DNA from: a virus | Taxonomy: Duplodnaviria; Caudoviricetes | Reading direction: 5' to 3' (one strand) | Length of the DNA stretch: 51,993 nucleotides | IMG/VR virus record: IMGVR_UViG_3300024265_000007 | Span: 1 to 51,993 of that record | Part shown: positions 22,348-48,978 of the stretch, one piece after another | How the letters are laid out: every line of letters starts with the position of its first letter | Position numbering within the stretch: the stretch's first letter is position 1 | Made by a program: the position numbers and the translations under genes | The notes under the pieces: generated by a model | What the model was told of the DNA's origin: nothing | Seen by the model: the letters and a program-made list of their open reading frames with translations, nothing else | Databases searched by the model: none

Positions 22348-22659
22348 GTGATGAATTCTGAAGAGCAAAAGAAAATGGAAAAACTAAAATGTGATGTTGT
22401 AGCAATCGACCAAGAGCATGGGATACCTTTTGGTTATTGGGGTCGAATTGACTTTAAGACGGTAAGGGTTGAGCAATTTTATAACAATCTTAGAGTAAAT
22501 GTCATTTTCTGGCAGAAAATAAAAGAAGGGGATGATCTTTATTGCGTGGACATGACAGGCGAGAAGGAAATGGGCGGGCTATCTGTCGTTGTTCCACCTG
22601 ATTACGATCTTGAATGGTTACGTGAGGAGTTTGCAAGGGCTTGTATTAATAGAAGATAG
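22348..22659 (+). CDS. Hypothetical protein
   Basis: Last early-strand ORF before the RNA cluster. Confidence 0.55.
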   Translation: MMNSEEQKKMEKLKCDVVAIDQEHGIPFGYWGRIDFKTVRVEQFYNNLRVNVIFWQKIKEGDDLYCVDMTGEKEMGGLSVVVPPDYDLEWLREEFARACINRR

Positions 22660-22668
22660 TGGTAGAAT
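22641..22668 (+). promoter_or_regulatory. Promoter of the tRNA/ncRNA cluster
   Basis: TTGTAT-16-TAGAAT with TG extension, 8 nt upstream of the tRNA. Confidence 0.55.
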
Positions 22669-22676
22669 GATTATAT

Positions 22677-22750
22677 TACGGGATGGAACAGGTGGTCAGT
22701 TCGTCGGTCTCATAATCCGAAGGTCGTAGGTTCGAATCCTACTCCCGTGA
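22677..22750 (+). tRNA. tRNA-Met(CAT), initiator-like; CCA not encoded
   Basis: Acceptor TACGGGA/TCCCGTG, D stem GAAC/GTTC (A11:U24), anticodon arm TCGGT-CTCATAA-TCCGA, T arm GTAGG-TTCGAAT-CCTAC. Confidence 0.9.
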
Positions 22751-22752
22751 CA

Positions 22753-22846
22753 TGGAGAGCAGCACGCCGATAGGTTCAATCCCTATGATACAGTCTGGCG
22801 ATGAGTGACGGGACTTGGTGTGTAGGTTCAATTCCTACCCTCTCCA
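22753..22846 (+). ncRNA. tRNA-like RNA with two T-loop hairpins
   Basis: TGGAGAG/CTCTCCA closing stem; T arm GTAGG-TTCAATT-CCTAC; second ATAGG-TTCAATC-CCTAT where the D arm would be. Confidence 0.6.
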
Positions 22847-22901
22847 CAAAGAGGACTGATTGACCGGATAGATAACAAGTGACTGGCGCAGGACTCTTTC
22901 C

Positions 22902-23010
22902 TGGGGACGTAGTTTAATCGGTAAAACAACCCGTGGCAGAAGTTGGGCGAGTGTACAGTAACCCAGTCGGAAACACAGGAAGATGGTTGTTCGCAGCAAC
23001 CCGATCTCCA
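22902..23010 (+). ncRNA. tRNA-like RNA with greatly extended anticodon arm
   Basis: GGGGACG/CG(A)TCTCC acceptor, TA, D arm GTTT-AATCGGTA-AAAC, ~48-nt extended arm, T arm GGTTG-TTCGCAG-CAACC. Confidence 0.65.
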
Positions 23011-23051
23011 CATGCCCTTTAGAGAGGACGCTCTCACATAGATGAAAAAGG

Positions 23052-23094
23052 AAACACCCCGTTCGGCAGATCACCGGGCGGGGTGTTTTTGTTT
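23052..23094. terminator. Terminator at the early/late convergence (possibly bidirectional)
   Basis: AAACACCCCGTTCGG/CCGGGCGGGGTGTTT with a T-rich 3' side and A-rich 5' side. Confidence 0.75.
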
Positions 23095-23205
23095 CTAAGC
23101 CGACTCCCCTGCTCACGCAACACAATACCCCTGATTAGCGCCAAAATCTCTACAATCGGCGCACAGGGGCAGCAACTATACTTTATGTTATCGAACTACT
23201 GAGGG

Positions 23206-23646
23206 CTAAACCACTTCTGTCTCGTTCGGAGCAAGTCGTACCAACGAAAAGCGCATAACGCTCTCGACTGCATCTACCAGGAAATGCGTGCCCTTGCTAC
23301 CTAACCCAATGGCCGCGCCAGTGGTGACTATGTTGAAAATTTCCTGAATGGTTGTTTCTGCTGTTTGCCCGAAGACATCGAAAAATGACATATCAACACC
23401 AACGCCCCAGACATATAGAATGCCCATTACAACTGAAGCAACCCGGAATGTGCTATGTAGCCGTTTGGTATAGAGTTCGTCTTGCGCCTCTATCGCATCA
23501 TCTCCAACTGGCTCTTTTGCGAACTTTTGCCGATAGCGTTGCAACGCGGTTTTCATCGCGGGCTTGAGAATTGCTTCCATCAAGATATAAAACATCCCCG
23601 CAAATGCTGCTAATGCTGTGAGTGCTTCCTGGTTAATTTCGATCAT
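23206..23646 (-). CDS. Holin-like membrane protein
   Basis: About three TM helices; TGAAIGLGSKGTH motif; last gene of the late operon. Confidence 0.55.
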   Translation of the reverse strand: MIEINQEALTALAAFAGMFYILMEAILKPAMKTALQRYRQKFAKEPVGDDAIEAQDELYTKRLHSTFRVASVVMGILYVWGVGVDMSFFDVFGQTAETTIQEIFNIVTTGAAIGLGSKGTHFLVDAVESVMRFSLVRLAPNETEVV

Positions 23647-45733: not shown

Positions 45734-46108
45734 TTACTCCTCAAACAATTCTGTCAATGGACGGGATATATCATCCGGCTTTGATTCTTGTGCTTTCAAC
45801 AATTTCATATTCTTTGCAAACCTAGCTTTGTAGACTTCAACCATCCGCAAATCAGAAGCTATAGTGTCTTTAATTTCAGCTATTGAATCTTCGTGTGTGT
45901 TGAGTCTTATCTTTTCTTTACTATACCAAGGGTCACTCTCTACATCCTCATATTTATAAAGATGTGAGTTATCGTTTAACTCTTTTCTGATTAGCGAACA
46001 GAGTTCCCCGCTATCATATTCATCGTTTACTTCAACATGTTCTCCAGCGTCATCTATCCAGATAAGCATTACTTCGTTATCTACAAAATATTGACTTGTT
46101 ATTTTCAT
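45734..46108 (-). CDS. Hypothetical protein
   Basis: ATGA overlap with the portal stop. Confidence 0.55.
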   Translation of the reverse strand: MKITSQYFVDNEVMLIWIDDAGEHVEVNDEYDSGELCSLIRKELNDNSHLYKYEDVESDPWYSKEKIRLNTHEDSIAEIKDTIASDLRMVEVYKARFAKNMKLLKAQESKPDDISRPLTELFEE

Positions 46109-48978
46109 TTTGTACCCCCTGCAATTAACTCTTTCATCAATTCCATAATGCTCTTTGTGATGAGCTTCAACTTGCCGCGTGCCTTCGCTTTCACCGGCAC
46201 TAGGTTGCAGTCGCAATTGTCGCCATGACAGGCCAGTGTATCGCTCTGCGGCATTGCGCCTATTTTTACCCAATGCTTGAAGCGGTGGCGTTGGCCGTTG
46301 TAGCCCGAACAGCTTTTACAATGAATCTCGGTTTTTCCAAGGACCCATTCGGACATCTTGTTGCCACCGGCACTGGCGAATCCCGCATCATACATTGGCT
46401 TGACACTCTTATTGTACCATTGAGCGCCTTTACCTTGCGAACTTGTCAGCTTTTCTGATTTTACCGTTCCCAGCAAACTAGTCACGAATTGCGATTGTTC
46501 GGAGATAAACTGGTTTATCTCTACTTGTTCGGCATCGGTTGGCTCTTCGCCCAGAGCGCCGCCGTCGGTTAATCCGTCCCGATATACCTTGTTATTGGCT
46601 TTGCGAATGATACTCCGCAGCGTGGAACTAGCTTGTCGCCGTGTTGTCTTGCCGTCAATGTGGACTTGCAGCGTGTCCTCGAAGTCATCCTCGAAATCAA
46701 TTCGGGTTGCCTGAACGGACTTGATCGCTACCCAGTCCTTAACCATCCCAAAGATAGACTTGACTGTCAGCCCAGATTCTGTCTTGTTGTAACCTTTGAA
46801 CGATTCAATTACTGTGTCTGCAATATCACCGCGAGTGTAATTCGGCTCAAACTTTGGCAGGGACTTTAGTCCGTTTGCACCGCGCCGTTTGATAAACGTA
46901 TACCAAGCATCAAGTTCTTTTTGCGCCTTCTCTACCGACCAGTCCCAATTATCGACAGTCGATTGCGAACGCGCCATAACTGCCTTGACGCAAACCAGAT
47001 TTGACTTTTGGCCAACAACATGAAACTCATCATAATATTCCCGTCCGTAAACAACCCGATCAATCCCCAGAACAAACGGTTCAATCTCAATATCGGGAAT
47101 AGTGACCTCGTTCGGAATATAGGCCATTGTGATGTGAGGATGATAATCGTTCGGGTTGCTATGTTCAGATAATTCCATTCCCTTAAACTTGTCAAATATC
47201 TGGGACTGCAATCTGTCTAATGCAACCGAATTATTGACCACTAAATGGAGGGCTTGCCCATTATCAGTATCGAATATTCCCACTTCTTTAATCTCAAGTG
47301 GATTATCATCCAGCTTAAATTCGTCTATTGAATTGATCGTGCGTGCATCTAATTCCCGATCTGATATGTCCGGGGCATAGACCAATGTTACATGAAAGGT
47401 GTCCGGTTCTTGCCATTCAATATCGGCGGATTCCCCAATGATGCCTTTGATCTTGCGTTGGATTGCCAATAGTTCGTCCCGCTCTGCTAAGTCGATATAG
47501 ACGTATGCTGACTTGTCCTGCGCCTTCGCTTTCAGTGACTCAGGCTCAGTTGGCGAAAAAGGGGGCGGATCATTACCTTCCGGTGGTAAGTCTGGCAAAT
47601 CGCCACCTTCAACATCAGAAGTCTGTGCGACTACCGCCGCTTCTTCTGGCGTTCCACCGGCAACAAAACCGGACTTCAGGTCTTCAGGTGAAACAAAGAC
47701 CATGCCCGGTTGCACCATTAACAGATTGCCACGCTCCTCTTCAAATGGCTCTAATTTTTGCCGCTTCCTTGCTTCATTGATTGTGATGATTGTATTCTGT
47801 AAATTCCTCCCGGCAATCTCCGCTTCGCGGAGGTCATTCTCACTCACCCGGTCAAACTCAGAGCGGTCTACTACTAACCTATCCAGATGATATTCGGGAG
47901 GTAGTAGCGGAATAATACGACGATTGAAAAATGCGATAATGTCATCGGCGCGCGGGATAATATTGCTAGTATAGAAGCGGTAGGTTGTCTCGTCACCTTG
48001 CTTGTATCCTGCTATATCGCTATTACCCAGCATTGTTTCCGGTACGCCAAACTGATTTAATATTCGCTCACCTGTCTTTTGCGAATAGGAGGTGATTGCG
48101 CTATAATCAGGATAATCTAATTTTGTAACCTCAACATCGCCCGGCCAAAATATAAGGCCACCAACGTTTTCGGGTCCGCGTGACCTCTTTTTTGCATCTT
48201 CCAGCCCTTCGCGTGTCGCCTGTAAATTACTAAACGAGCCACCTTTTGACGAGACGACTCCCATGCCCTGAATGCCGTTTTGGAAATGAGATACAACTGA
48301 TGTCTGGATAGCGAAATCAATTTCCAGACTTTCCAGGACGGCCAGCACATCAGGGTAGCCGCGTAAATCATCTTGAGGATTGTAGCCATGCTTATAGGCA
48401 ATCTCGAACGGTTTATACGTCTCTGGACTGCCAGTGTCAAACGGTGAATAGAAATACTGATTGACTTTCCCATTGGACGCATTAAGAGACACCCCCAGTG
48501 GATTCAGCCAGTCAAGGGCGAGCAGGGGATTATATTTACTGACTGGATAATCATCACGCTTGCGAACGAGTTCAATATACAATTCGTCAAATAGTGTGAG
48601 GGAGGCCGCCACACGGAACAGGAGCGACATATGTTGATGGTCTTCATAGGCATGGAACAGTTGGAAGAGGGGATGCTGGGGAATAGGATCGTCACTTCTA
48701 GCAACTTCTGTGCCCTCCCATTTATCATTAGCTCCGGTCATGCCCCGTTCAAATCGTTTGATTGAATAGGGCAGGGTGTTTATGCCGGACGCGATTAGCT
48801 CCACACATTTTTCCACATAGCCGATCACGATATATGCTTGGGCCGCACCCCATTTTGTACGCGATAATTGATCCCCTCTATTAGCAGCGTTTACCCAGGG
48901 AGCAAGGGGCGACCAGGTGCCCAGGTCGATTGATTTCTGCACGGTGCTTGGCCGCTTTGTTTTAGTATTCCATTTCAT
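46105..48978 (-). CDS. Portal protein fused to a 2H phosphoesterase and a MuF-like head morphogenesis domain
   Basis: Portal: VEKCVELIASGI, LDWLNP, FGVPETMLG, ITINEAR. 2H: FHVTL and YHPHITMAY. MuF-like: EWVLG..EIHCKSC...CHGDNCDC. Confidence 0.87.
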   Translation of the reverse strand: MKWNTKTKRPSTVQKSIDLGTWSPLAPWVNAANRGDQLSRTKWGAAQAYIVIGYVEKCVELIASGINTLPYSIKRFERGMTGANDKWEGTEVARSDDPIPQHPLFQLFHAYEDHQHMSLLFRVAASLTLFDELYIELVRKRDDYPVSKYNPLLALDWLNPLGVSLNASNGKVNQYFYSPFDTGSPETYKPFEIAYKHGYNPQDDLRGYPDVLAVLESLEIDFAIQTSVVSHFQNGIQGMGVVSSKGGSFSNLQATREGLEDAKKRSRGPENVGGLIFWPGDVEVTKLDYPDYSAITSYSQKTGERILNQFGVPETMLGNSDIAGYKQGDETTYRFYTSNIIPRADDIIAFFNRRIIPLLPPEYHLDRLVVDRSEFDRVSENDLREAEIAGRNLQNTIITINEARKRQKLEPFEEERGNLLMVQPGMVFVSPEDLKSGFVAGGTPEEAAVVAQTSDVEGGDLPDLPPEGNDPPPFSPTEPESLKAKAQDKSAYVYIDLAERDELLAIQRKIKGIIGESADIEWQEPDTFHVTLVYAPDISDRELDARTINSIDEFKLDDNPLEIKEVGIFDTDNGQALHLVVNNSVALDRLQSQIFDKFKGMELSEHSNPNDYHPHITMAYIPNEVTIPDIEIEPFVLGIDRVVYGREYYDEFHVVGQKSNLVCVKAVMARSQSTVDNWDWSVEKAQKELDAWYTFIKRRGANGLKSLPKFEPNYTRGDIADTVIESFKGYNKTESGLTVKSIFGMVKDWVAIKSVQATRIDFEDDFEDTLQVHIDGKTTRRQASSTLRSIIRKANNKVYRDGLTDGGALGEEPTDAEQVEINQFISEQSQFVTSLLGTVKSEKLTSSQGKGAQWYNKSVKPMYDAGFASAGGNKMSEWVLGKTEIHCKSCSGYNGQRHRFKHWVKIGAMPQSDTLACHGDNCDCNLVPVKAKARGKLKLITKSIMELMKELIAGGTK

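Follow-up and report, generated by a model that had tools for sequence, protein, structure and literature searches.

We analyzed a complete virus record with direct terminal repeats, IMGVR_UViG_3300024265_000007 (51,993 nucleotides [nt]; this whole stretch is called the window), around an element at 22753 to 22846 that an original prediction had described as a transfer RNA (tRNA) mimic. The element, here called mimic 1, is a real, nonrandom, tRNA-derived feature. With moderate confidence, we read it as a gene for a nondecoding "top-half" RNA that is derived from a tRNA and cut out by RNase P. Of a class II-type tRNA it keeps exactly what processing enzymes recognize, namely, the 7-position acceptor, the T arm, U-1, and A73, and in place of the D, anticodon, and variable arms it has a 61-nt body with a second T-arm hairpin. 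Speaking for this reading are nonrandom helices, a working top half, a position in an operon, a second look-alike (mimic 2) nearby, a body that is not point decayed, a recurring design, and tRNA look-alikes in distant relatives of the phage.

In its natural register, mimic 1 runs from G22754 to A22846 (93 nt). Its parts are as follows.

22753, plus strand: U(-1), read from the sequence; the base 5' of the predicted RNase P cut and the first base of the 7-bp stem originally proposed
22754 to 22760, plus strand: acceptor 5' strand, GGAGAGC, pairing with 22839 to 22845 through six Watson-Crick pairs plus C7-C66
22764 to 22769, plus strand: 5' strand of body stem S2, ACGCCG, pairing with 22816 to 22821 (TGGTGT) in the minimum-free-energy (MFE) fold and in the MFE fold constrained to keep acceptor and T arm
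22770 to 22786, plus strand: inner T-arm hairpin T1, ATAGG-TTCAATC-CCTAT, ensemble probability 0.75
22792 to 22815, plus strand: weak hairpin AGTCT/GGACT with a 14-nt GG-containing, possibly D-loop-like loop, from the constrained MFE fold
22822 to 22838, plus strand: outer T arm T2, GTAGG-TTCAATT-CCTAC, within the 25-mer shared exactly with viral contig L027
22839 to 22846, plus strand: acceptor 3' strand CCTCTCC plus the discriminator A73, read from the sequence and followed by CAA, with no CCA

Both T-arm hairpins that had been predicted are present and canonical, the outer one at 22822 to 22838 (five Watson-Crick pairs, a TTCRANN loop, and a G-C closing pair) and the inner one at 22770 to 22786. 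The claimed 7-bp complementarity between TGGAGAG (22753 to 22759) and CTCTCCA (22840 to 22846) is also in the sequence, but as a stem register it leaves C22839 unpaired between the T stem and the acceptor. We prefer the register G22754...C22760/C22839...C22845, with G22754-C22845 as its outer pair, because L027 and the bacterial tRNA-Tyr genes with this 3' end use G1-C72, U-1, and A73. The element begins 2 to 3 nt after the tRNA: the predicted 2 nt holds with the ARAGORN end of tRNA-Met (22751) and a stem from 22753 and becomes 3 nt with the Rfam end (22750).

The remainder of the proposed fold fared less well. The stem CGCC (22765 to 22768)/GGCG (22797 to 22800) and the anticodon-like hairpin TGAGT-GACGGG-ACTTG (22802 to 22817) can both be drawn but are disfavored, with ensemble probabilities of 0.03 and 0.005, respectively, and the whole original fold has an energy of -22.4 kcal/mol, against -28.5 for the MFE and -27.7 with acceptor and T arm forced. 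The favored body is instead a stem (22764-22769/22816-22821) carrying T1 and the hairpin 22792-22796/22811-22815. The best match of that hairpin in tRNA bodies is a D-arm region, at chance level. The acceptor has an ensemble probability of 0.54. No homologs were found that could give comparative support to S2 and the rest of the body fold.

Strict T-arm hairpins number five in the window, both strands taken together, and three of them lie within 113 nt (22726 to 22838, plus strand); mononucleotide shuffles (n = 200) contain a mean of 0.23 per window and a maximum of 2. From base frequencies, we estimate a chance of less than 1% that the 7 nt after the T arm would have a six-of-seven Watson-Crick partner lying only a few nucleotides from the end of the preceding tRNA. 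T1 and T2 are identical at 14 of 17 nt, and their first pair is switched on both sides (G-C to A-T), with the helix kept. The T arm of tRNA-Met has the same stem. The similarity of T1 and T2 is limited to these 17 nt, a pattern which suggests that a T-arm hairpin was duplicated locally, not that two tRNA genes were fused. The earlier view that simple decay is unlikely was borne out, in that three helices are perfect or nearly so and the body has no residual similarity to the 972 distinct tRNA bodies gathered during the analysis. Its best local score is 23, versus 21.4 ± 1.6 for shuffles, with 16 of 60 shuffles as good, and a point-decayed tRNA was rejected.

Judged by its sequence, the top half of mimic 1 is that of a working class II tRNA, because the same end recurs in L027 and in bacterial tRNA-Tyr, tRNA-Sec, and tRNA-Ser genes. 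Outside the window, one viral contig, L027, has the last 25 nt unchanged, at the end of a clean class II phage tRNA (RF00005, 46.4 bits; fold z score, -3.44). A relaxed 24-nt form of this end (T loop relaxed, no A73) matched at least 120 bacterial genome stretches from many phyla; among the matches listed, ARAGORN called 52 tRNA-Tyr, 35 tRNA-Sec, and 8 tRNA-Ser genes and made no call for 17. A bacterial tRNA-Tyr-like gene (L052) has the exact TTCAATT loop and is identical to the mimic 1 end at 25 of 25 nt. Three bacterial contigs from metagenome-assembled genomes (MAGs), L032, L040, and L052, carry tRNA-Tyr(GUA)-like genes that have an unusual D region and receive no ARAGORN call. A metagenome pattern anchored on the two ends of mimic 1 gave 10 loci, comprising 7 tRNA-Sec-like genes, 2 interrupted phage tRNA-like genes (L151 and L155), and 1 ordinary tRNA-Tyr gene, and none of the 10 resembles the mimic 1 body. 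The two interrupted genes (L151, 4157 to 4273; L155, 840 to 954) and their downstream flanks belong to phage tRNA arrays with tRNA-shaped genes that have long inserts in the anticodon region.

Only the top half of mimic 1 looks like a tRNA. Its acceptor (six Watson-Crick pairs plus C7-C66) stacks on a 5-bp T stem with the loop TTCAATT. Position 8 is A, not U, and the 9 nt after the acceptor run into the body stem and T1, leaving no D arm with G18G19. The sole hairpin of 5 bp and 7 loop nt has a T-loop sequence and U at position 37, where an anticodon arm has a purine; the hairpin originally proposed for that role has a 6-nt loop and the ensemble probability of 0.005 given above. The Rfam search that had been suggested was run, and RF00005 (threshold, 29 bits) gave no match on 22753 to 22846 at an E value of ≤10. 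ARAGORN made no call with default, intron, or mitochondrial settings and drew only a "tRNA-???" at a 70% threshold. Identity as a tRNA was thus rejected, in agreement with the earlier statement that the element cannot decode normally: it has no U8, no D arm, and no anticodon arm in the standard place.

Could the inner hairpin nevertheless be an anticodon arm? Mimic 1 would then be an unusual working decoder with the loop UUCAAUC, the anticodon CAA (Leu, UUG), no D arm, a 35-nt variable region, and A73. The hairpin has the required 5 bp, 7-nt loop, and U where a tRNA has U33; the top half of the element is of the class II type; and A73 fits leucine identity. The loop, however, conforms to the T-loop consensus, with U instead of a purine at 37; the D arm, U8, and G18G19 are missing; neither ARAGORN, its mitochondrial mode included, nor RF00005 recognizes the element; and no D-armless tRNA is known to work with bacterial ribosomes. 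We regard such a decoder as very improbable.

The architecture of mimic 1 recurs in other phages. Two AGG-type T-arm hairpins 25 to 55 nt apart, which is too close for two whole tRNAs, were found at no fewer than 120 loci in IMG/VR; by a rough estimate, about one would be expected by chance. In 38 of 109 distinct matches, one strand of a 7-bp outer helix (G-U allowed) begins immediately behind the second T arm and its partner lies upstream of the first; shifted controls gave 11 to 25 of 108 to 109, so that only part of the 38 is signal. The first hairpin has no acceptor of its own, as in mimic 1, in 31 of these 38 enclosed cases (31 of the 109 distinct matches), and 50 of the 109 resemble a tRNA or look-alike followed by a short extra T arm. 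ARAGORN spans both T arms in none of the 109. RF00005 calls at least six of the enclosed elements overlong tRNAs of 98 to 146 nt (32.5 to 45.6 bits; L160, L167, L186, L178, L245, and L158), and it misses L175, L202, and L239, which have only a short linker before the first hairpin, like mimic 1.

One group, which we call the A2 family, consists of seven distinct phage sequences of 116 to 122 nt with invariant T hairpins and two invariant UGGUA segments. Its members, with coordinates as given, are listed below.

L172:1916-2036: A2 member
L188:8196-8317: A2 member
L192:5862-5979: A2 member
L198:2267-2388: A2 member
L246:3213-3330, minus strand: A2 member
L260:4493-4610, minus strand: A2 member
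L267:562-677, minus strand: A2 member

Compensatory changes occur in 10 of 25 predicted pairs of the A2 family, mostly in the acceptor, which often has G3-U70. The two members scanned with RF00005 (L172 and L198) were not reported by it. Conserved two-T-arm tRNA look-alikes therefore exist in phages, and mimic 1 fits this class, which is defined here by its architecture and not by demonstrated homology, so that kinship to mimic 1 is not implied. At the level of titles and abstracts, we found no published description of tRNA look-alikes with two T arms or of such phage tRNA-like decoys. In L160 (2171 to 2757), a GOLLD RNA (253.8 bits) lies 6 nt ahead of a 113-nt two-T-arm look-alike (2569 to 2681), and a normal tRNA comes next.

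Two distant relatives of the window phage that have tail genes in common with it (G001, tail and structural genes only; G002, tail genes only) also carry tRNA look-alikes. In G001, whose phage is 51.5 kb, the look-alike is an 88-nt tag-less transfer-messenger RNA (tmRNA) on the minus strand (L010, 1498 to 1585 = G001:C1:6638-6725; RF00023, 62.2 bits, E value of 9e-23) in which a 16-nt hairpin replaces 300 model positions. In G002, it is a 150-nt element on the minus strand (L009, about 1448 to 1597; z score, -2.93), whose interior is a 69-nt tRNA-like unit (RF00005, 42.2 bits) with its own T arm, a 3-bp anticodon stem, and the loop ACGUAAA (GUA, Tyr-like), framed by an outer helix of 8 to 11 bp and a hairpin that resembles a T arm (loop TTAGAAT).

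It is conceivable that mimic 1 belongs to an undescribed phage class with two elbows, in which the top half is a handle or stabilizer and the second T loop is a module of its own, forming a sponge for readers of elbows or CCA ends or docking its two T loops onto the elbow of a real tRNA. T-box leaders, RNase P, and the L1 stalk dock their paired T loops onto the tRNA elbow in this manner (PMC3664808). The targets of such a sponge may include, for example, defense toxins that modify or cut acceptor ends. On the present evidence, we consider membership in such a class unlikely.

Mimic 1 lies in an RNA block in which a promoter-like site is followed by tRNA-Met, mimic 1, a hairpin, the alanine-type mimic 2, and a terminator. 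The other features of the block are as follows.

22641 to 22668, plus strand: promoter-like site read from the sequence, TTGTAT, a 16-nt spacer, and TGGTAGAAT (extended -10), overlapping the stop of the upstream open reading frame (ORF)
22677 to 22750, plus strand: tRNA-Met(CAU), found by ARAGORN; RF00005, 59.1 bits; no encoded CCA, A73 followed by CA
22847 to 22902, plus strand: structured spacer with an AAAGAG...CTCTTT hairpin; fold z score, -1.96
22903 to 23010, plus strand: mimic 2, with acceptor GGGGACG/CG(A)TCTCC, G3-U70, A73, a canonical D arm, the T arm GGTTG-TTCGCAG-CAACC, and a loosely folded 56-nt body
23050 to 23095, both directions: intrinsic terminator, a 17-bp hairpin between an upstream A-run and a downstream U-run; -30.5 kcal/mol, z score, -4.28

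The site at 22641 to 22668 looks like a promoter by inspection only; its extended -10 motif, TGGTAGAAT at 22660 to 22668, puts the predicted start 1 to 3 nt before tRNA-Met. We propose that a single transcript from this motif would carry tRNA-Met, mimic 1, the hairpin spacer, and mimic 2. RNase P would cut between 22753 and 22754, 5' of G22754, because the stack of acceptor and T arm is a minimal RNase P substrate, and tRNA-Met would be left with a 2- to 3-nt trailer. A 7-bp acceptor rule is given for processing by RNase P and the CCA-adding enzyme (PMC4201824). The CCA-adding enzyme of the host would extend A22846, giving a stable, CCA-ended look-alike of about 93 to 96 nt that would be barred from decoding and may bind proteins whose recognition is confined to the acceptor end or the T-loop elbow.

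A role as a tRNA-processing signal, as offered in the original prediction, is plausible in that the cut at the 5' end of mimic 1 would free tRNA-Met. The decoy role offered with it would be confined to readers of the acceptor/T-arm half, because there is no anticodon loop to present. Phage tRNA genes serve in an arms race with tRNA-targeting defenses. As a guess, mimic 1 might serve as a sponge or stand-in, occupying host factors whose substrates are the acceptor ends or elbows of tRNAs, with the separation of tRNA-Met from the rest of the transcript as a speculative side benefit. An antisense target in the phage seems unsupported: the longest complementarity of 22753 to 23049 to the remaining genome is 13 nt, which is the chance level.

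Several results weigh against the reading of mimic 1 as a top-half RNA gene. No homolog of the 61-nt body was found by any search made, leaving no evidence of covariation or conservation. The original prediction had tied its case to homologs with covariation or a discrete transcript, and the absence of body homologs from exact-word and BLAST-level searches speaks against a conserved function. The exact 20-mer and 22-mer of the inner hairpin had no match in viral and metagenome contigs. In the INPHARED database, blastn matched only tRNA-Met and no mimic body (best 40 of 92 records), and a second blastn gave nine records, of which eight are at most 37 nt of T arm and acceptor and the ninth is 21 nt in the spacer before mimic 2. 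The neighboring genes have no close relatives. The folding energy of mimic 1 does not stand out from shuffles (z score, -0.63; 48 of 200 shuffles as good), although this test has little power here, because the genuine tRNA-Met also scores only -0.46. The acceptor has a C-C mismatch at 7-66, and neither T loop has a clear D-loop partner. The T arms of tRNA-Met, T1, and T2 are nearly identical, which fits a recent local duplication, and intact helices may only mean youth. The two-T-arm search pattern forces both hairpins, its controls are high (10 to 23%), and no member is sequence-related to mimic 1. The proposed plus-strand promoter is absent from the output of the consensus scan, which needs four of six matches in the -35 hexamer. 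Finally, an identical tRNA-Met block exists elsewhere without mimic 1 behind it.

This last observation comes from an unrelated metagenome run (X2), in which a 269-nt contig is 100% identical to the 80-nt block 22673 to 22752. The flanks differ on both sides, and the identity ends exactly where mimic 1 starts, so that 22753 is a real boundary and tRNA-Met and mimic 1 are separable modules; mimic 1 is no obligatory partner, and the tRNA does not need it. Among the sequencing runs, the stretch occurs only in X1, its probable source, and X2 has the tRNA-Met block and T-arm-like fragments; no RNA run was listed as containing it. The 3' 22-mer of tRNA-Met had no match in viral contigs.

Much of this evidence also speaks for the main rival, a young relic, that is, a class II-type tRNA gene wrecked by a rearrangement that duplicated the T arm and lost the D and anticodon arms, not yet decayed and under no selection; such a relic could still be transcribed and cut. 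Mimic 1 is an orphan without conservation in the searches made, T1 is identical to T2 at 14 of 17 nt and both resemble the T arm of tRNA-Met, there is no thermodynamic signal and the C7-C66 mismatch is present, the same tRNA-Met occurs without mimic 1, and the body of mimic 2 is essentially unfolded (z score, +1.0), as junk would be. A relic does not readily account for two adjacent look-alikes that both keep acceptor and T arm and both lose the decoding parts. Nor does it explain why about 470 nt of nontRNA, noncoding DNA is kept in a genome with about 92% ORF coverage, why the first pair of T1 is changed on both sides, or why conserved two-T-arm families occur in other phages. We find a young relic quite possible, if on balance doubtful, and keep the top-half RNA gene as the preferred reading.

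The original suggestion of a Y-RNA-like molecule, which would tether the Ro60 protein as YrlA does, was not upheld. The favored fold has a T hairpin and then a GG-loop hairpin on one stem, the T-then-D order of YrlA (PMC4201824). The Ro60 domain TROVE (PF05731), however, has no match in the complete 51,993-nt genome (a control search was positive in 2 of 14 genomes); the YrlA model RF02553 has no match to mimic 1 at an E value of ≤10; and at the ends, a tRNA acceptor takes the place of a Ro-binding helix. We take a YrlA-like identity to be extremely improbable.

Equally hard to credit are two further origins, that the element is an attP or scar left by integration, with the 3' end of a host tRNA gene copied into it, or that it is one part of a permuted two-piece tmRNA. 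The 3' 25-mer does equal the ends of real tRNAs, and the region 22822 to 22911 has weak tmRNA-type matches (tmRNA_permuted, 18.1 bits, cutoff 47, E value of 0.14; beta_tmRNA, 12.7 bits, cutoff 84), with a permuted tmRNA drawn by ARAGORN at a 70% threshold. Against a remnant, the matching 5' acceptor strand is present at exact tRNA spacing, no tyrosine integrase (PF00589) was found (serine recombinases were not searched), and the genome has direct terminal repeats; attP was rejected on the first two of these points. Against a permuted tmRNA, both tmRNA calls are far under threshold and GGGGACG, the 5' strand of mimic 2, is no pairing partner for CCTCTCC; this origin too was rejected. A tmRNA domain as such was rejected because the 3-70 pair is A-U, there is no D-loop analogue of the GGAUUCGAC type, and no GGAC precedes the T arm.

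The MFE of mimic 2 recovers its acceptor, D, and T arms, and in the register chosen by the MFE, G3-U70 and A73 are alanine-type marks. Its D arm resembles those of tRNAs, with 1 of 60 shuffles as good. ARAGORN draws it, as a tRNA-Phe(GAA) interrupted by a 33-nt "intron," only when introns are permitted and the threshold is lowered to 80%, and it has no Rfam match. GAGAG/CTCTC words are repeated across the RNA block, in the mimic 1 acceptor, in the spacer hairpin, and in a small hairpin, AGAGAG-GACG-CTCTCA (23019 to 23037), before the terminator, and the 3' acceptor strand of mimic 1 can pair alternatively with AGAGG at 22850 to 22854.

The block sits between converging gene sets, together with the sole tRNA gene of the genome: plus-strand genes stop at 22659 and minus-strand genes start at 23206. 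The gap between them (22660 to 23205, 546 nt) is the longest noncoding stretch once the family-less ORFs that overlap the block are set aside. There are only two of these, 22835 to 23125 (minus strand) and 22828 to 23037; they are minus-strand coding candidates without a PHROG family, and the former, an unsupported ORF, reads through the terminator hairpin. The terminator closes both the RNA operon and the converging minus-strand genes; the terminator scan had a loop limit of 8 and for that reason missed it.

The window encodes a DnaB-like helicase, an ERF recombinase, an RNase T-like exonuclease, an HK97-type capsid, a portal, and a large terminase, and the neighboring proteins have no Pfam or PHROG family related to RNA. 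INPHARED holds no near relative of the phage, and the terminase is at most about 30% identical to those of its cultured phages. No relatives were found for the 146-amino-acid (aa) downstream protein or for DnaB; the 145-aa upstream protein gave 13 loci (24 to 50% identity), none with a tRNA, and none of the 6 loci found with the 505-aa tail protein contains a tRNA. The tRNA-Met genes of MAGs with the 25-mer or a close variant are only 82 to 86% identical to the phage copy, so no host was called. The portal protein (957 aa; 46105 to 48978, minus strand) has a C-terminal 2H-phosphoesterase domain with matches to LigT/2'-5' RNA ligase-like families and a weaker one to Acb1 (anti-CBASS).

A functional mimic 1 would extend the phage tRNA look-alikes that never decode, for which tag-less tmRNA and YrlA are precedents, by a design that combines the top half of a tRNA with another elbow hairpin, and it would offer a small substrate that is easily tested for RNase P cleavage, CCA addition, and pull-downs. 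If it is a relic, it is an ordinary by-product of the turnover of tRNA clusters. The wider result may outweigh the orphan: dozens of two-T-arm look-alikes in the tRNA arrays of phages escape the standard tRNA finders, and they include at least one conserved family.

Compared with known systems, mimic 1 is closest in its ends to class II tRNAs (L027 and bacterial tRNA-Tyr, tRNA-Ser, and tRNA-Sec), with which it shares the GGAGAG start, the T arm GTAGG-TTCRANT-CCTAC, CCTCTCC, U-1, and A73; it differs from them in lacking the D, anticodon, and variable arms, in the second T-arm hairpin of its body, and in having C instead of G at position 7. The tRNA cluster of phage T4 includes the stable RNAs C and D, small nontRNA RNAs of unknown function that are made and processed together with phage tRNAs, and mimic 1 is like them by general description, not by a comparison of sequences. 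YrlA (RF02553) is likewise a nondecoding RNA with a T arm and possibly the same T-then-D order in its body, and YrlA with a 7-bp acceptor is a substrate for RNase P and CCA addition (PMC4201824); unlike YrlA, mimic 1 is in a phage without a Ro60 gene anywhere, has no Rfam match, and forms the acceptor from its own ends. Tag-less tmRNA, as in G001 and mycobacteriophage DS6A, where the "TLD only" form is proposed to titrate SmpB (PMC4131195), is also a phage-borne look-alike reduced to the acceptor/T-arm half, whereas mimic 1 has A3-U70 instead of G3-U70, no GGAUUCGAC segment, no GGAC before the T arm, and no RF00023 match. The two-T-arm look-alikes (A2, L175, L202, L239, L160, L167, and others) have no sequence relation to mimic 1 beyond the forced motif, and most have a normal D arm; in architecture, however, they match it, with an outer acceptor flush with the T arm enclosing an acceptor-less second T hairpin, and they often lie in or beside tRNA arrays.

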